A stretch of 42,479 bases of DNA from Deinococcales bacterium (GCA_031414595.1 JANNVX010000070.1:1-42479); one strand, 5' to 3'. Positions 1-5,936 are shown, counted from the first letter of the stretch. Made by a program: numbers and translations. Notes: generated by a model from the letters alone, not told the origin.

Positions 1-138
1 AGCAGGACAGACACAGGGGTCTGTCCCTACAAAATCCATAAAAATACGTCAGGTAGGGGCGGACCCCCGTGTCCGCCCTGTGACCAATTGTCTGTTTTTG
101 GTCTATTTGAAATCAGGAAGTTATTCTTGGACAGTTCC
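1..138 (-). mobile_element. MITE copy 1 (truncated by window edge), inverted relative to the copy at 810-1000; interrupts vapC
   Basis: Reverse complement of 1-138 matches 810-947 with one mismatch (pos. 61). The end GGACAGTTCC is followed by TAA (139-141). Confidence 0.85.
4..78. repeat. Pair of GTAG-family REP-like hairpins inside MITE copy 1
   Basis: GTAGGGGCGGACCCCCGTGTCCGCCC at 53-78 (+) and GTAGGGACAGACCCCTGTGTCTGTCCT at 30-4 (-). Each is a GTAG tetranucleotide followed by a GC-rich imperfect palindrome. Confidence 0.75.
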
Positions 139-374
139 TAAACAACGCTCCGAATCACTGGCTTCAAAAGTAAGCACCGTCATTTCTCCTGCCACTAAAC
201 CCGCCAGAAAAGCTCGAGCCGCATGAGAACCAACTTGGTTGCCAAGTAATCCACTTCGGGCAGAATCGTGGTTGGAACAAGAATCGGTTGACCAAAAAAG
301 GCTTTCATGGCTTCGTGATTTGGGTCACGGCGATTTAGAATAGCCAGTGCAGCATTGGTGTCCAGCAAAAACAT
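139..374 (-). pseudogene. vapC: VapC-type PIN-domain toxin, frameshifted and truncated by MITE
   Basis: ATG at 374 reads MFLLDTNAALAILNRRDPNHEAMKAFFGQPILVPTTILPEVDYLATK (PIN hhDTN and E motifs). It continues in another frame near 232 (GSHAARAFLAGLVAGEMTVLTFEASDSERCL) and then runs into the MITE. It lies directly after the antitoxin stop. Confidence 0.8.
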
Positions 375-581
375 TTAGCCTTCACCAAATAATAATTCTT
401 CATCCCGAAGCGATAAATCATCTATGCTCGAGTCGCCAGCCCCGTAAAAACTCCATGCTTTGGGTGTAATTTCCTTACGAATTGCCTCGAGAATCATTTC
501 TTCGAGAGTTAAACCCTGTTGCAAAGCCAGTTTATGCACGGCTGCTTCAAGATTTTTCTCGAGCGTAATTTGCATGGTCAT
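375..581 (-). CDS. vapB: VapB-like (RHH/CopG-type) antitoxin
   Basis: 68 aa, MQITLEKNLE...EMILEAIR with acidic tail GAGDSSIDDLSLRDEELL. Its stop abuts the PIN gene start, and a TACACT -10 box lies 6 nt upstream of the ATG. Confidence 0.7.
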   Translation of the reverse strand: MTMQITLEKNLEAAVHKLALQQGLTLEEMILEAIRKEITPKAWSFYGAGDSSIDDLSLRDEELLFGEG

Positions 582-616
582 GATGGTAGTGTACTGTATT
601 TTTGAAAATTCTAAAA

Positions 617-754
617 GTGGATAACACCGAGTACAACATCATAGATTTGTTACTCGAGCAGGGTGTGCTAGAAAATCGAATTGTGCTTGGTTTTCAAGCG
701 CCGTTTCAGAGACAGTTTTCTGGTTTTGCTTTGGGCAATGAAATTCAAGCCTGA
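617..754 (+). pseudogene. xisI: 3' fragment of an XisI-family gene
   Basis: Reads VDNTEYNIIDLLLEQGVLENRIVLGFQAPFQRQFSGFALGNEIQA*, matching the XisI C-terminus (compare EDGTDVGVVNELVRLGIPEDKIVLAY in 2328-2651). The N-terminal half is absent. Confidence 0.75.
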
Positions 755-758
755 GCCG

Positions 759-809
759 ATGCGCTCGAGTACGAAGTGAGATAAATTTTTATGTGCAATC
801 CTATGCTAA
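759..809 (+). repeat. Cassette-boundary repeat, copy A (split by MITE; continues at 1004-1015)
   Basis: atgcgctcgagtacgaagtgagataaatttttatgtgcaatcctatgctaa|acaccgaggc aligns with the copies at ~1845-1895 and ~2650-2710. Confidence 0.65.
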
Positions 810-1000
810 GGAACTGTCCAAGAATAACTTCCTGATTTCAAATAGACCAAAAACAGACAATTGGTCACAGGGCGGACACGGGGGTCTGCCCCTACCTGAC
901 GTATTTTTATGGATTTTGTAGGGACAGACCCCTGTGTCTGTCCTGCTAGGAAACAATGTTTCATCATTTCCAAATAGGGAAGTTATTTACGGACAAATCC
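810..1000 (+). mobile_element. 191-bp MITE with imperfect terminal inverted repeats, TAA target duplication and internal REP pair
   Basis: Left end GGAACTGTCCAAGAATAACTTCC vs reverse complement of right end GGATTTGTCCGTAAATAACTTCC (18/23). TAA at 807-809 and 1001-1003. REP hairpins at 870-895 (-) and 918-944 (+). No long ORF. Confidence 0.85.
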
Positions 1001-1068
1001 TAAACACCGAGGCGCAAGGCTTGATGAACCCGCTTGACAATCATAATCGTCTACCCTAAACTATACGA

Positions 1069-1474
1069 ATGCGGCTTTACCTTGCCCGACACCCAGACCA
1101 AATAACCAGCAAACACCCACGAATCATTGAAGATATGCTTGAGCTTTGCGAACACCATCAACTTGCTGTGAACGCCATGATTGGAATGCTCGAAGATTTA
1201 TTCGAGTTTAATCTTAAAACCAGATACGCTAAAAAGCTAACAGATTACCCGCTTTGGGAACTGAAAACCCGTTCTCGAGGCGGCGAAAAAGGCGGAGCAA
1301 GAGTCTATTTTTTTGTCGAAAATAACATTGCTTACATCTGCAATGCCGAAGTCAAAATAGGCAGCGAACCGAGCGAATACAAACTCGAGGAAGCGACCAT
1401 GCCCGTTAGGTGCGTTTTATGGTCAAGAAGCCCTAGAAATTCTAGTCGCCCATCGCGCTGGGAGGAACATATGA
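1069..1474 (+). pseudogene. RelE/ParE/HigB-like toxin, frameshifted near its 3' end by a 37-bp insertion and now read through into the antitoxin (ORF 1069-1842)
   Basis: KKLTDYPLWELKTRSRGGEKGGARVYFF is a RelE-fold signature. Removing 1395-1431 restores ...KLEEALEILVAHRAGRNI* with TGA (1472-1474) overlapping the antitoxin ATG. Confidence 0.7.
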
Positions 1475-1842
1475 ACCCACGAATCAAAGCCATGCTCGAG
1501 ACTTTTACCCCCGAAGAAATCCAAACTGGAATTCTTGAGAATAAACAAAGTAAAACAGTTCTAGCAACCACACCAAGCGAACTTGAACGTACTTTCAAAG
1601 CCGAACTTCTGGCTCGAAATGCCGGGACTTTACTACGCCAAGCACGGGAAGCTCGAGGCAAAAGCCTGAGTAAATTAGGTTTGGAGCTTGGCATTAGCAA
1701 AGGCAGGGTGCATCAGCGCGAACAAGCCAGTGCCAACTTAGAAATCAAAACAATCCTCGAGCAAGCCGATGCGCTCGAGTACGAAGTTGAATTGGTGTTA
1801 AGACCAAAGCAAGGTGGGCAGGAAATACGAGCGTTGTTGTAA
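1471..1842 (+). CDS. XRE/HigA-like HTH antitoxin
   Basis: GGAGGA Shine-Dalgarno before ATG 1471. LLRQAREARGKSLSKLGLELGISKGRVHQREQ is a Cro/XRE HTH. Confidence 0.8.
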   Translation: MNPRIKAMLETFTPEEIQTGILENKQSKTVLATTPSELERTFKAELLARNAGTLLRQAREARGKSLSKLGLELGISKGRVHQREQASANLEIKTILEQADALEYEVELVLRPKQGGQEIRALL

Positions 1843-1844
1843 AA

Positions 1845-1895
1845 TGCGCTTCAGTAAAGCATGGTAGGATTTTGGGTGCAGCCCTGTGCTAAACA
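1845..1895 (+). repeat. Cassette-boundary repeat, copy B
   Basis: atgcgcttcagtaaagcatggtaggattttgggtgcagccctgtgctaaacac, immediately after the antitoxin stop. Confidence 0.65.
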
Positions 1896-1911
1896 CGAGT
1901 AGAATACAACC

Positions 1912-2337
1912 ATGCCCGCTCGAGATAATTACCATGATGCCGTCCGAACAGCCCTCGAGAAAGAAGGTTGGAAAATTACCGCAGACCCATACTATCTTGG
2001 CTTTGGACGCGATGTGGTTGCCATAGACTTAGCGGCAGAACGCACTCTTGCGGCTGAACGGGATAACCAAAAAATTGCCGTCGAGATAAAGAGTTTTAAC
2101 AACCCGAGTATTCTTCACGATTTTCATGCTGCACTTGGGCAATACTTGAATTATCAAATTGGAGTGACCCCCTAAAGTGAGACCAGCGAACCGACTCGGG
2201 TTTTATACCTTGCTCTACCAAACACCACCTATGCCAGAATTCTCGAGCGTGACCTTGTACAAGCCGCTTTGAAACGTCACAATGTTCGATTATTGGTCTA
2301 CAATACTGAACAAGAGGTGATTGAACAATGGACATAG
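1912..2337 (+). pseudogene. xisH: XisH-family PD-(D/E)xK protein with in-frame TAA
   Basis: MPARDNYHDAVRTALEKEGWKITADP...IDLAAE...IAVEIKSF...ALGQYLNY. The same frame continues after TAA (2173-2175) with SEPTRVLYLALP...LLVYNTEQEVIEQWT* ending at 2337, overlapping xisI. Confidence 0.85.
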
Positions 2338-2651
2338 AACAAACCCAACAAGCCATTCTCGAGGTACTGAACAGCATTATGCCACACAGCAGCAATGGTC
2401 TCGAGTATTCACTTCTAGCCGATAAAGAAAAGCACCAGTATCAACTTCTGGTCAGTGGTTGGCAGCAGCATAAGCGTGTGCATGGCATTGTGGCACAAAT
2501 GGACATTCGGGACAACCTGATTTGGGTACAAGAAGATGGAACAGATGTTGGTGTGGTCAATGAATTGGTGCGCCTTGGGATTCCCGAGGACAAAATCGTG
2601 TTGGCGTACATGATGCCAAACCAAACGCAGAAACTCGAGTTTGTCAGATAA
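2328..2651 (+). CDS. xisI: XisI-family protein
   Basis: DKEKHQYQLLVSGWQQHKRVHG...DIRDNLIWVQEDGT...GIPEDKIVLA. Follows xisH. Confidence 0.9.
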   Translation: MDIEQTQQAILEVLNSIMPHSSNGLEYSLLADKEKHQYQLLVSGWQQHKRVHGIVAQMDIRDNLIWVQEDGTDVGVVNELVRLGIPEDKIVLAYMMPNQTQKLEFVR

Positions 2652-2710
2652 GCACTCGAGAATGCGTGGTAGAATTTTATGTGCAGCCATGTGCTAAACG
2701 CCAAGGCTCG
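2650..2710 (+). repeat. Cassette-boundary repeat, copy C
   Basis: aagcactcgagaatgcgtggtagaattttatgtgcagccatgtgctaaacgccaaggctcgag, immediately after the xisI stop. Confidence 0.65.
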
Positions 2711-2762
2711 AGATTAAAAGACTGACATTGGATACCGCTAGGTAATCTTGTATACTTAAGCT

Positions 2763-4103
2763 ATGTCGCAACCAAGTAACCGAAATCGCCGCAATGATAA
2801 TACTTCTATCAAGGGTATTTTTATTCGTGGTTTTAAGTCAATAAAAAATAAAATAGAAATTAGTTTCCAGCCATTGACTATTATTGCAGGTGCAAATAGT
2901 TCAGGAAAATCTTCTGCTTTTCAACCCTTATTACTTCTCAAACAGACCCTAGATTCACCTTTTGATCAGGGACCACTTCGTATAAATGGCGAAAATGCAA
3001 AATTTAGTGAATCTTCTCAACTTTTCTGGAAAGGTGGGCGCAAAATTGATACTGCTTCAGAATTTGAGATTGGATTTATTTTAGAAGGCTTAAACCCATC
3101 AATTATTTATGAAAAAGCAAAAGTAGGATTGGCGATTAAGTCTGTTGAGTTTACCAGTTCAGGAGAACGTAAGGAGATTAACGAAAAAACGAGTCAAGAA
3201 GAATTGGAAACAATTTTTACAGTACCAACAGAAATCAATAGTCGATTTCTAAAGAAAAATGAATATAAAATACACAGAAACATACAACGTAAGCGCTGGT
3301 TTTTGGATGTAACTTTACAATTTATAGGCAAAAATGATGTTCTGGAAACCCCTTTTTTAGAACCCTCTTTTTCATTTTTTAATGATATTCAAAACGAGGT
3401 AAACAAAATAATTCATTTGCCAGGATTGCGTGGTAATCCAGAGCGTTTCTATCCGGAAACAGCTATTGGGAAATCTTTTTCTGGTGTTTTTACCCCATAC
3501 TCAGCCAGTATAATTGCCAACTGGAAAGATGAAAGTTCTGGTTTACTAACTCAACTCGGTGATGATTTAAGAGAAATTGGTTTAACTTGGAAAGTTGATC
3601 CAAAAAGAATAGATGATACACGAGTAGAATTGCGTGTTGGAAGGTTGCCACAAGCAGCACATAGTGGGGCGAATGATTTAGTGAGTATTGCAGATGTTGG
3701 TGTTGGCGTTTCTCAGACACTACCTTTATTAGTTGCTTTGCTCGTTGCTGAAAAAGGACAAATTGTATATATAGAACAACCCGAAATACATTTGCATCCT
3801 CGAGCGCAAGTTGCCCTTGCACCTATCCTCATTCGGGCAGCAAATAGGGGTGTAATAACTGTGATTGAAACACATAGTAGCTTACTGTTAAAAAGTATTC
3901 AGGAACAGGTCGCTCTTGGCAAAATCATGCCTGAGAAAACCGTTCTGCATTGGTTTTCTCGAGATGAATATGGTGTGACGAATGTTCAAAGTGATTCGTT
4001 CTCTAAGGATGGTTCTTATGGAGATTGGCCCGAAGATTTTGGTGATATTGAGTTAGATATTGAAGACAGATTTTTACGTGCATCTTTTGGTCAAGAAGTA
4101 TGA
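2763..4103 (+). CDS. AAA_15/AAA_21-type ABC ATPase with DUF3696-like C-terminus
   Basis: Walker A GANSSGKS, signature-like DVGVGVSQ, Walker B VYIEQPEIHLHP, H-loop IETHS, and C-terminal DGSYGDWPEDF. AT-rich, with a TATACT box 6 nt upstream. Confidence 0.85.
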   Translation: MSQPSNRNRRNDNTSIKGIFIRGFKSIKNKIEISFQPLTIIAGANSSGKSSAFQPLLLLKQTLDSPFDQGPLRINGENAKFSESSQLFWKGGRKIDTASEFEIGFILEGLNPSIIYEKAKVGLAIKSVEFTSSGERKEINEKTSQEELETIFTVPTEINSRFLKKNEYKIHRNIQRKRWFLDVTLQFIGKNDVLETPFLEPSFSFFNDIQNEVNKIIHLPGLRGNPERFYPETAIGKSFSGVFTPYSASIIANWKDESSGLLTQLGDDLREIGLTWKVDPKRIDDTRVELRVGRLPQAAHSGANDLVSIADVGVGVSQTLPLLVALLVAEKGQIVYIEQPEIHLHPRAQVALAPILIRAANRGVITVIETHSSLLLKSIQEQVALGKIMPEKTVLHWFSRDEYGVTNVQSDSFSKDGSYGDWPEDFGDIELDIEDRFLRASFGQEV

Positions 4104-4636
4104 CCCATGTTGTTGTGGATGTTTCAGTGGCACGTTCTAGTGGCAATGCAACTGCCATTCATCCGAATGCTGTGGCTTGTCGAAGAGTTTTGGAGTCAAT
4201 TCGAGATCATCCAAGTATTTTTCTGATAATGACTAGCGAAATTTTGGAGGAATGGCTAAAAAACGACGTTGAATCTCAAAAAGTTTATGCGTCAAAATAT
4301 GCGATTAAATGGCTTTCTGCAATGCGTTCAAAACAAAAAATAAGGTTGATTAGTCCCATAAAAATAAATGAATTTGATCAATGCGCTCAGGATAATTTAG
4401 ATCCAATTTATCTCGCTGAACTTCGTAAAGATGCACACTTATTTTATGCAGCATTATCTTCGGATAAAAAAGTTATTTCGTGTGATAAAAAATGTTGGCA
4501 ATACGCAATTGCCATTGCTGACTGCTATCCAAGAATTCAAGGTTTACATTGGGTCAATCCCAATGATGTTTACTGCCTAGAGTGGATTTCGGAAGGTGCA
4601 AATGACAATCCATATTGGACACCTTCAAATCAGTAA
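4100..4636 (+). CDS. PIN-fold-like protein coupled to the ATPase
   Basis: ATGA overlap with the ATPase. VVVDVSV at the N-terminus, ILEEW, KDAHLFYAAL and VISCD give the PIN acidic pattern D..E..D..D. Confidence 0.6.
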   Translation: MTHVVVDVSVARSSGNATAIHPNAVACRRVLESIRDHPSIFLIMTSEILEEWLKNDVESQKVYASKYAIKWLSAMRSKQKIRLISPIKINEFDQCAQDNLDPIYLAELRKDAHLFYAALSSDKKVISCDKKCWQYAIAIADCYPRIQGLHWVNPNDVYCLEWISEGANDNPYWTPSNQ

Positions 4637-4641
4637 ATTTC

Positions 4642-4806
4642 ATGCTTAAATCTCTTTCTCTTTTCAGTGGTTGTGGCGGCTTGGATAGCGGTGTCTTCCA
4701 AGCTGGTTTCACGCCATTGGCAATGCAGAAGTAACTCCTCATGCCACCAAAACCTTGTCGCATTGGCTGGGGCAGGGTTATTCCACTGTTCTCGAGCTTG
4801 CTCGAG
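4642..4806 (+). pseudogene. 5' remnant of a C5 DNA cytosine methyltransferase
   Basis: MLKSLSLFSGCGGLDSGVFQAGF is motif I (FxGxGG). After a frameshift, EVTPHATKTL resembles motifs II/III. The remnant breaks off at two CTCGAG sites just before the spoIID stop. Confidence 0.75.
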
Positions 4807-4808
4807 GT

Positions 4809-5936
4809 CTACTGCACCGCGTAAGCCCCAATCCCAACACCCGGATAATAGTAGCCAAGTATTTGGGTGTACCCGTAACCTTGCGCCGCAAAATACCGTG
4901 CGCCATACTGCGATAAACCCACACCATGACCATTGCCATAACCTTCAATAATCAGGGGGTTGCTCGAGACCACATCAATCATGCTGCTTTTTGCACCCAA
5001 TGCCCGTGCAAGGCTGTAAATATTTGTGCCAGTAATTTTGCTTGTGCCTGTACTACCGACGATTTCGATTGAACTTGGGCGGTTGCTTTCGGTGCGGTCC
5101 AAGACGCGCATACTGCGAAATGTACCAATGTTGACGAATCGGTTAATCACGCTTTGAGCTACTGCTTGTGAGACCGTAACCCGCCAAGCATTCGGACTCG
5201 AGACACCACCGGGGTCTGGGCGAGCAGTCAAGTACGGCAGGTCACCACCCCAGATTTCACGGCTCGAGGCAGTGAAGCCGCCACTTTCGGCATGAAAATA
5301 AGTTCGGGCTGGTTTGTTGCCATACGATAAAATTAAGCCGCGTGTGCTGGCAGCCGCCGCGTCACCGCGTGGTGTTTCGGCAGTTGCCCCGCCGTAGACT
5401 TGGCAACGTTCAGAATCACAGAGGTCGTAATCGGCTTTGGTGTTGATGTTGGCGATTGCGTAAGTTCGGGCAATCACCGCTTGGGCTTTTAGGGCTTCGT
5501 CTTGCCAATGGGTTGGCATCTCGAGCGGAATCACACCACGCACATATTCTTCAACATCCACGGCATTGACCAGCATCACTTGTCCACCCCTTGCCAGAAG
5601 CACAGCAGCCCCACGATAGAGTTTGCCGTTGTACTGAAAATAACTGGTGTTGCTTTGCAGAATTAAACGGTCTTTGCCCGTGTCAAAGATGCCAGTGGCG
5701 GTTTCGATGCCAATGTCGTTGCCAAGTACCGAGATGCGCCACTCGAGGGCAGTATCGCTGCTCGAGATGGTCGTGCCATCAGCAAATAAAGCACTGTGAT
5801 TGGCGGGCATCAGAATCGAGACTTTACTTTGTTGCCCAAGCAAGACCCGTAAAAGTAGCACATTGGGGTTGCGAGGTTGTGCTGCTCCGACCGAGAACAG
5901 CAACAATCCGATTAAAATTAGGCTTTTGAACCACAT
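4809..5936 (-). CDS. SpoIID/LytB-domain protein (peptidoglycan lytic transglycosylase-like), exported
   Basis: Signal peptide, EEYVRGVIPLEMP, EALKAQAVIARTY, CQVYGG and GNGHGVGLSQYGA. Confidence 0.92.
   Translation of the reverse strand: MWFKSLILIGLLLFSVGAAQPRNPNVLLLRVLLGQQSKVSILMPANHSALFADGTTISSSDTALEWRISVLGNDIGIETATGIFDTGKDRLILQSNTSYFQYNGKLYRGAAVLLARGGQVMLVNAVDVEEYVRGVIPLEMPTHWQDEALKAQAVIARTYAIANINTKADYDLCDSERCQVYGGATAETPRGDAAAASTRGLILSYGNKPARTYFHAESGGFTASSREIWGGDLPYLTARPDPGGVSSPNAWRVTVSQAVAQSVINRFVNIGTFRSMRVLDRTESNRPSSIEIVGSTGTSKITGTNIYSLARALGAKSSMIDVVSSNPLIIEGYGNGHGVGLSQYGARYFAAQGYGYTQILGYYYPGVGIGAYAVQ

Follow-up and report, generated by a model that had tools for sequence, protein, structure and literature searches.

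A 62-nucleotide direct repeat punctuates arrays of toxin-antitoxin and defence cassettes in a Deinococcales genus

The window array and its repeat

At the left end of contig C70 of a Deinococcales bacterium (GCA_031414595.1, JANNVX010000070.1; genome G000, 4.49 Mb in 120 contigs, 94% complete), toxin-antitoxin (TA) and defence cassettes are separated by copies of a direct repeat that we call R (Table 1). The window analysed here comprises the first 42,479 bases of this contig and starts at the contig end. From left to right, the array holds a vapBC-type cassette, the C-terminal fragment of an xisI gene (xisI'), a Gp49/HigB-like toxin with a helix-turn-helix (HTH) antitoxin, an xisH-xisI pair (xisHI), and a foreign defence module, followed by the 5′ remnant of a cytosine methylase gene (dcm') beside SpoIID. 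An earlier note, made from the window sequence alone, had described three copies of the repeat and read them as a capture or recombination site, an interpretation that our results partly support. All three copies were recovered at, or within a few bases of, the places reported, and each indeed begins close to the last stop codon of the preceding cassette, 0-3 nt beyond it in every case (xisI' 752-754, HTH 1840-1842, xisI 2649-2651). The gene calls held in part, with xisI', XisH, XisI, an AAA_15/21 ATPase and the dcm remnant confirmed by Pfam; the presumed relE is a Gp49/HigB-like gene, and the PIN assignment in the ATPase module has no Pfam match and follows from predicted fold. The cassettes had also been described as co-oriented, which applies to R and to the four units named at the time, but not to the vapBC cassette, which we now count as part of the array, nor to higBA and vapBC in relatives. 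An in-frame TAA in xisH and the fusion of Gp49 and HTH by a 37-nt insertion are further additions to that description.

Table 1 Features of the array at the left end of the window.
Feature	Position	Strand	Details
Truncated copy of a 191-bp miniature inverted-repeat transposable element (MITE) in vapC	1..138	-	98% inverted match to 804-947; at contig start
vapBC-type cassette	139..581	-	PIN toxin 5′ part 195-374, cut by the MITE, PIN Pfam positions 2-47; antitoxin 375-581
xisI', C-terminal fragment	602..754	+	PF08869, 1.3e-9, profile positions 71-109
R1, left part	755..809	+	Decayed; first 24 nt are the HTH gene 3′ end at 1764-1787
191-bp MITE in R1 core	810..1000	+	Inserted at GCTAA/AC; TAA on both sides
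R1, right part	1001..1020	+	Beyond the 191-bp MITE
Gp49/HigB-like toxin + HTH_3 antitoxin cassette	1021..1842	+	Own promoter 1034-1062; fused open reading frame (ORF) 1069-1842 (257 aa); HTH_3 by Pfam
R2	1843..1899	+	Right end shortened; runs directly into xisH -10 box
xisH + xisI cassette	1912..2651	+	xisH 1912-2339 (PF08814), xisI 2328-2651 (PF08869)
R3	2652..2712	+	Complete copy, GCACTCGAG...GGCTCGAG
Terminal foreign defence module	2713..4636	+	NsnB-like AAA_15/21 ATPase 2763-4103 (PADLOC NsnB 182 bits, Pfam); 178-aa PIN-like protein 4100-4636
dcm', 5′ remnant of cytosine methylase gene	4642..4774	+	90% identity with the intact C44 dcm over residues 1-30; same remnant in 6 other arrays
Island right border	4775..4808		Just before SpoIID stop codon; homology to the empty G001 site from ~4797-4810

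R is a discrete, non-coding unit of ~62 nt with the pattern GCRCTCGAG-47 nt-CTCGAG. Twenty complete copies from seven genomes gave the 62-nt consensus GCACTCGAGTAAAGCGTGnTAGAATTTTGTGTGCAGCCCTGTGCTAAACGCCAAGGCTCGAG, which has CTCGAG at both bounds, a central block of ~22 nt (GTGTGCAGCCCTGTGCTAAA) and its best conservation in the block TTTTGTGTGCAGCCCTGTGCTAAAC. Within the window, a repeat-family alignment related 1856-1894 (reference) to 2661-2699 (85%) and 773-811 (62%), and a 25-nt core pattern allowing ≤3 mismatches matched at 1870-1894 and 2675-2699, with no match in 100 shuffles. A profile search of the whole genome placed R at seven sites, namely the three in the window (E-values 8e-21, 1e-16 and 3e-4), three on contig C44 and one on contig C111. 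This profile was built from five copies (R2, R3 and the three on C44), so that the R2 and R3 matches are true by construction; independent support comes from the C44 copies, found by BLAST, and from relatives (E down to 1.6e-22).

Folding analysis of 28 copies on both strands revealed no fold-back (z from -2.66 to +1.23 over 56 folds, three below -2), in line with the earlier statement that R is not an attC site. What pairing there is derives mostly from the self-complementary CTCGAG ends, the single 7-bp inverted pair in R is not retained in the G003 copies, and neither dyad symmetry nor inverted ends were found in R. An Rfam scan gave no match on R, only weak miRNA-like matches on the MITE hairpin; this blank, along with the lack of a significant fold, rules out R as a structured RNA. 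Five of the 28 copies aligned have one-nucleotide indels that break every reading frame, and no stop codon is conserved, which excludes both a micro-ORF starting from the ATG or GTG after the -10-like box of R and a minus-strand C-terminus. The suggestion that R might be a duplicated gene terminus survives only at its edges: the left edge of R1 and that of the first C44 copy hold 17-24 nt of the HTH 3′ end by way of deletions (in R1, a repeat search of the window found 754-777 identical to 1764-1787, inside the HTH gene), but R itself is non-coding.

A DNA search detected R in 6 of 7 congeners and in none of 33 other genomes of the family and order. Across 19 family genomes, the R profile returned 30 matches in 7 of the 8 genomes of one Deinococcales genus, none of them solitary, and in other genera only three marginal matches (E 0.003-0.009); two extra profile matches in G003 (contig C32) look like chance. 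A pattern scan of 185,579 species genomes yielded 11 R loci, all from the same genus, plus one chance match in Pleionea, while a metagenome scan yielded four matches, to the 21-nt pattern alone and none credible, and IMG/VR, PLSDB and phage records yielded none. R occurs at 2-3 loci per genome, and all seven copies in G000 are confined to the C44 array or to the C111 and C70 array; with the absence of inverted ends, this confinement excludes a dispersed repeat of the MITE or repetitive extragenic palindromic type. The genome-wide search suggested in the earlier note hence brought to light further copies, on C44 and C111, but no recombinase adjoining the arrays.

Array layouts, the dcm anchor and exchange at R

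Arrays of the same kind were reconstructed in the relatives from Pfam scans of R flanks and BLAST between arrays (Table 2), with shorter pieces in G001 and G007. The punctuation of TA and defence cassettes by R, first noted in the window, extends across this set: in our reading of the layouts, R occupies 24 of 29 inter-module junctions, between xisHI, Gp49/HigB-HTH, higBA, vapBC, Uma2 and DUF433-DUF5615 modules. Type II TA modules among the cassettes include PIN with an upstream small gene, Gp49 with HTH_3, HTH_37 with a partner, and DUF433 with DUF5615; XisH/XisI and Uma2 may likewise be TA-like or selfish nuclease modules. Pfam identified no transposase or integrase in the arrays, internal cassettes are flanked on both sides by the 62-nt R, and R always points the same way as dcm, even before inverted cassettes. 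C111 probably continues into C70, since the same MITE ends both contigs and their PIN halves are complementary (Pfam positions 2-47 and 78-114).

Table 2 Array layouts, each read in the direction of R; dots stand for junctions that lack R.
Genome and locus	Layout
G000, C111 + C70	BCS1-like AAA – R0 – vapBC (inverted, MITE in vapC). xisI' – R1 – Gp49-HTH – R2 – xisHI – R3 – ATPase + PIN-like – dcm' – SpoIID
G000, C44	ABC permease – HTH' – R – higBA (inverted) – R – Gp49-HTH – R – 345-aa gene – intact dcm + convergent 361-aa gene – nucleoside kinases
G003	LeuA-like – HTH' – R – DUF433-DUF5615. higA – R – vapBC. xisI – R – xisH'-xisI – R – MTase-NsnA-HEPN – dcm' – SpoIID
G006	Uma2 – R – xisHI – R – MTase-NsnA-HEPN – dcm' – response regulator
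G004, first array	xisHI – R – higA – R – Uma2 – R – Gp49-HTH – R – ATPase + 147-aa gene – dcm'
G004, second array	DUF5615 – R – 135-aa gene – dcm'
G005	HTH – R – Uma2 – R – ATPase + 177-aa gene – dcm' – SpoIID
G005, ABC-permease locus (contig C678), equivalent to G000, C44	ABC permease – HTH' – R – higBA (inverted) – R – Gp49...

Cassettes were found to change partners at R. The Gp49-HTH cassette has three upstream partners (xisI, higBA and Uma2) and seven downstream partners (xisHI, the 345-aa gene, ATPase, Uma2, higBA, a 275-aa gene and DUF433). Between G000 and G005, which are ~91% identical at SpoIID, the unit lying between HTH-R and R-ATPase is xisHI in the former and Uma2 in the latter, a replacement bounded by R2 and R3, with similarity ending at the right end of the first R and resuming at the first base of the next. 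At R0, the alignment of the same two genomes shows 161 of 166 identical columns as far as GTGTGCAG and 18 of 26 in what remains of R, with no relation beyond it, which places the breakpoint of the replacement inside the R core. Cassette change exactly at the repeat, which the earlier note had proposed to look for in relatives, was thus observed both in the xisHI/Uma2 replacement and at R0.

The copies themselves are mosaics, in which the left arm is inherited with the upstream cassette and the right arm with the downstream cassette, and exchanges fall inside R. We compared 20 of 28 copies by permutation, dropping R1, which the MITE splits, one internally deleted copy, four partial copies standing first in their arrays and two near-identical G005 orthologues. 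Left halves were more alike when they followed the same upstream cassette (identity 0.765 vs. 0.689, p ~0.009), with no effect of the downstream cassette (p 0.29) or of a shared genome (p 0.65). Right halves were more alike when they preceded the same downstream cassette (0.885 vs. 0.796, p ~0.001), with no effect of the upstream cassette (p 0.48) or of a shared genome (p 0.34). On a finer split, the association with the upstream cassette fell in AAAGCG..TTTT (p ~0.04) and that with the downstream cassette in GCCAAGGCTCGAG (p ~0.006), the central block being linked to neither neighbour; these values come from related, non-independent copies in small classes (nine same-downstream pairs), with two cassette types giving much of the right-arm signal.

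All seven array ends that lie within a contig have the start of a single dcm gene, its first 130-190 nt, and the chromosomal flanks beyond it differ (SpoIID, nucleoside kinases, a two-component system, ACT/LytR). An intact dcm is kept on C44 and in G007. On C44 (L001 8183-10352), the intact dcm and a convergent 361-aa gene, a putative restriction enzyme with no family match, have a 29-44-nt direct repeat on either side, one copy of it within the dcm 5′ region, and deletion between these repeats would leave a dcm' scar like those in the window and other arrays. Outside the genus, no relative of the array-linked dcm exceeds 42% identity, on which ground we rejected the idea that R arose upstream of dcm in another genus. 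The SpoIID locus in G001, G006 and G007 lacks R and dcm', and the ABC-permease locus in G001, G003 and G006 lacks R, which indicates that the arrays are insertions. At the ABC-permease locus of G001 (L042, contig C402, 8720-9597) there is instead a lone divergent Gp49-HTH pair without R, which may represent the ancestral state of this locus.

The position next to dcm is distinguished by composition. Seven intact TA cassettes that were measured (GC content 0.42-0.46, 5.7-9.0 CTCGAG per kb), the 153-nt xisI' fragment (0.40, 6.5 per kb) and the intact dcm (0.495, 6.9 per kb) can be set beside a genome mean of 0.47 and 5.2 per kb, while the six modules found between the last R and dcm have a GC content of 0.30-0.37 and only 0-1.2 CTCGAG per kb (0.367 and 1.0 for the window module). 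These six different modules share a single slot, bounded on the left by the CTCGAG that ends R and on the right by the dcm start codon, which lies within ~30 nt, and within ≤5 nt in three arrays. The near-absence of CTCGAG from terminal foreign modules suggests that its density is usable as a marker of residence time in this lineage. CTCGAG is by far the commonest hexamer in the genome (23,235 copies, one every 193 bases, where base composition predicts ~972). One of the six modules closes the arrays of both G003 and G006 (L014 3895-7009; L015 5960-9086) and comprises an N6/N4 methylase (MTase), an NsnA-like GmrSD_N protein (PADLOC 197 bits) and a RiboL-PSP HEPN protein; with a GC content of 0.30 and no CTCGAG, it is a candidate defence system.

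Possible routes of cassette movement

The genome encodes five tyrosine recombinases and one fragment, none of them on C70, C44 or C111. Within its 94% complete sequence no serine recombinase was detected, nor an integron integrase, the best TIGR02249 score being 63.8 bits against a cut-off of 265, and no recombinase was found beside any of the ~10 arrays. The sole recombinase present in all eight genomes of the genus is Xer-like (78-91% identity; in G005 a C-terminal fragment only, 99%) and also occurs in R-free genera (68-71% identity). The other four are sporadic, with array-bearing G006 having none of them, and no recombinase was found to track R across genomes. Given these absences and the lack of a dyad in R, the action of a site-specific enzyme, implied by the reading in the earlier note, stays a hypothesis. 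An attC-based integron is ruled out by the absence of a fold, of a tyrosine recombinase on the array contigs and of an IntI above the cut-off, and the missing dyad and the presence of R at several loci per genome argue against a mimic of the Xer target dif. An inverted partner of the TGCTAAAC arm gave eight scattered genomic matches, none in R; a dif consensus (≤4 mismatches) had no match apart from a repeat close to the ends of contigs, and the papers searched gave no Deinococcus dif sequence. When contigs of four public runs were compared with positions 1-5300, the joints 1718>2664, 2712>1000, 1894>4635 and 1387>1425 corresponded to the C44 paralogue, and no excision product was seen, although contigs cannot show rare forms.

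We consider it probable that R is a site where cassettes recombine, in arrays that are integron-like in logic yet are not integrons. As to the mechanism, we tentatively favour, without going so far as to call it probable, recombination by host functions at R. This preference follows from the lack of a dedicated enzyme and of a dyad in R, from a non-R anchor (dcm) bounding the variable slot, from the precedent of restriction-modification (RM) units discussed below, and from the proficient recombination for which Deinococcales are generally known. An array runs from a chromosomal flank through TA or nuclease cassettes of native composition, each followed by R, to a last R, one foreign defence module, and either dcm with the putative restriction gene or a dcm 5′ scar. 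Recombination between R copies, or between R and the dcm anchor, would gain, lose and shuffle cassettes, through short-homology or annealing-type recombination after DNA uptake or during break repair and with no dedicated integrase, and a mobile unit of R, dcm and restriction gene could have seeded arrays at several chromosomal places.

Several observations weigh against host recombination at R, or against R as the only place where arrays change. The longest exact tract shared between copies has a median of 13 nt and reaches ≥25 nt in only 14 of 190 pairs, which would make R a poor substrate for RecA. R is not homogenised within genomes (permutation p 0.34-0.65), as frequent gene conversion would have it, and the concerted evolution that G003 and G006 had first seemed to show is accordingly not supported. 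The same sharp ends recur beside at least 13 cassette types, for which site-directed cutting is a better fit, and six foreign modules sit in one slot that they cannot have entered by homology; all four of these points better fit a site-directed enzyme. The limits of the permutation test given above count here as well. ComEC and DprA are present, but competence genes also occur in 10-11 of 14 control genomes and therefore say little for host recombination. Among the relatives, none was seen to have just one R at a site that is otherwise empty, which also leaves the proposed regeneration of the target at each insertion unsupported. Finally, 5 of 29 junctions lack R and look like deletions, and of five further R copies that stand first in their arrays, beside chromosomal genes, four consist of the right half only, cut at differing points, so that deletions unrelated to R must also shape the arrays.

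Some of this evidence would be better explained if R were the attachment site of a trans-acting, site-specific system that recognises the core, with cassettes moving as right arm, genes and left arm; we regard this as possible but rather doubtful. A conserved central block between arms that track the neighbouring cassettes, and the breakpoint inside the core, fit such a system, as do the short exact homology, identical unit ends and foreign modules already mentioned. The activity could reside in the one conserved Xer-like enzyme or in nuclease pairs, for instance XisH/XisI or Uma2; for the XisF recombinase, XisH is described as an endonuclease-like helper and XisI as the directionality factor (Hwang 2014, as cited in PMC4853749). 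However, R has neither dyad nor hairpin, the enzymes searched for were found neither beside the arrays nor, for integron integrases and serine recombinases, in the genome, and the only recombinase common to R-bearing genomes is shared with R-free genera. Of the five genomic copies of xisH, three or four lie away from any R, terminal modules have R on one side only, and the array-first copies are cut at variable points.

A mainly regulatory role, in which R would accompany TA modules as an expression signal composed of an extended -10 (TGGTAGAAT), a brief leader and the ribosome-binding site AAGG, is unlikely. R could on this account have begun upstream of dcm, the arrays being decaying tandem TA islands in which breakpoints fall at R only because it is the sole shared sequence. 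An extended -10-like box (TGnTAGAAT in R, without a -35 box) is indeed recognisable as TGnTAnnAT in most aligned copies, Uma2 and the 135-aa gene start 9-25 nt past R with no promoter of their own, three of the five array-first copies keep the box and the right half, and, given the GCCAAGGCTCGAG end, AAGG would lie 6 nt ahead of a start codon. Yet a two-hexamer promoter scan left R unflagged while flagging the cassettes' own promoters, which most cassettes have, the -10-like box is less conserved than the block downstream of it, and R keeps its orientation before inverted higBA and vapBC, which it cannot drive. None of the sequencing runs recorded as containing this stretch is an RNA run, which counts neither for nor against such a role.

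It is more improbable still that R is a relic, namely the duplicated 3′ flank of an ancestral Gp49-HTH module that spread by tandem duplication, has no present role and owes the diversity around it to unrelated indels: the HTH-derived edges (24 nt in R1, 17 nt in the first C44 copy), the many broken cassettes of the window and the lone R-less Gp49-HTH pair in G001 agree with it, but those edges are secondary deletions of a form that is intact in G005, unit ends are sharp and shared, cassettes swap partners at R, and R copies beside unrelated cassettes in seven species (right half ~80%) are as alike as orthologous genes there (81-93%). A long shot of a different kind is an enzyme that cuts at or near both CTCGAG palindromes bounding R, ~53 nt apart on opposite strands, so that gap filling would duplicate R on both sides of the insert. 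By analogy, such duplication would resemble that of the repeat at spacer acquisition in clustered regularly interspaced short palindromic repeat (CRISPR) arrays, with foreign defence genes perhaps entering at the last R, by dcm, and older native cassettes decaying at the far end, an idea to which we likewise give little credence. Were it true, a hyper-abundant palindrome would gain a role in recombination, a role that the present system could serve to test.

Integrons are the textbook route by which small cassettes are stacked and reshuffled, a route that requires hairpin sites and a specialised integrase. The arrays described here share with sedentary integrons and clusters of attC sites lacking integron-integrases (CALINs) a one-way series of small, TA- and defence-rich cassettes, each followed by a similar repeat and shuffled between relatives; as in CALINs, no integrase adjoins the array and repeats are homogeneous within the lineage, like those of Vibrio cholerae. 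Unlike attC, R has no fold-back; no IntI was found in the genome, most cassettes have their own promoters, the arrays end in a fixed dcm anchor rather than start at attI, and R lies at more than one locus per genome. In V. cholerae, natural transformation is reported to drive cassette shuffling (PMC12614218).

A second likeness is to RM units inserted with long target duplications, described as lying between direct repeats of >30 bp, without transposase or integrase, in mostly naturally competent species, Thermus included (Furuta, Abe and Kobayashi 2010, PMC2853133). Both concern selfish units between direct repeats without a mobility gene, and the dcm-restriction unit on C44 is itself flanked by a direct repeat of 29-44 nt. 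The cases in that study are single insertions with one repeat copy at the empty site, whereas here the arrays are serial, the same repeat lies at several loci and no single-copy empty site was found.

Two further systems rely on fixed sites or anchors. The pdif modules of Acinetobacter plasmids and integrative mobile elements exploiting Xer (IMEX) at dif are small modules, often TA, that have short conserved sites at their borders and depend for movement on a housekeeping recombinase whose gene lies elsewhere, which recalls the one Xer-like gene shared by all R-bearing genomes. Xer/dif sites (~28 bp) have two inverted arms and a 6-8-bp spacer, whereas R has no inverted arms and its copies are all direct, not alternating; for a chromosomal dif, presence at 2-3 loci is impossible. 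Defence slots between conserved anchors, such as P2/P4-like prophage hotspots and the minimal mobile elements of Neisseria, where exchange is thought to run via anchor homology, similarly place different foreign, low-GC defence modules in exactly one slot between conserved sequences, but here the role of left anchor falls to a 62-nt repeat that also recurs upstream, between TA cassettes. A search of open-access full-text literature returned no report of such arrays or of integrons in Deinococcota, nor of XisHI in repeat-punctuated arrays. The arrays therefore present an integron-like logic with a non-folding site and no visible enzyme, and, if the mechanism is found, they could reveal a second route to cassette arrays, whether general recombination in highly recombinogenic competent bacteria or a new enzyme. 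A defined entry slot by a methylase gene, which has taken up six foreign modules, is also a natural place to seek new defence genes.

Decay of the window array and dispersed elements

Most units of the window array are decaying, as judged from the MITE in vapC, the cut xisI, the fused Gp49-HTH, the xisH stop (in-frame TAA at 2173-2175) and dcm'. The C-terminal part of the PIN toxin lies on C111, which ends in the other half of the MITE after the 3′ part of vapC, and the vapBC portion in the window shares 86% identity with a G003 cassette that has an R copy on either side. BLAST between arrays matched window positions 615-756 to L014 7269-7128 and 138-621 to L014 8813-8326, and the joint between xisI' and vapBC, as reconstructed from these sequences, is best read as a deletion that would have taken out an R, an xisH and most of xisI. 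In the Gp49-HTH cassette, Pfam recognises Gp49 in orthologues but not in the window toxin, and the two genes are fused by a 37-nt dispersed element (~1388-1430) that the paralogue on C44, an intact two-gene form, lacks. The 178-aa protein of the terminal module has a PIN-like predicted fold (predicted local distance difference test score 91.2), its best match being VapC (7vwo_A, E 3e-4).

Two dispersed elements recur beyond the array. The 191-bp MITE, whose insertion at 810-1000 split R1, has ~23-nt terminal inverted repeats and matches on dozens of contigs, many of them at contig ends; both of its insertions described here, in vapC and in the R1 core, lie at GCTAA/AC and are flanked by TAA. 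The element in the Gp49-HTH fusion is ~37-40 nt long, carries inverted ends (GACCAT...ATGGTC) and is matched 30 more times in the genome, and in contigs of runs from three studies it occurs at very high depth with many unrelated flanks.

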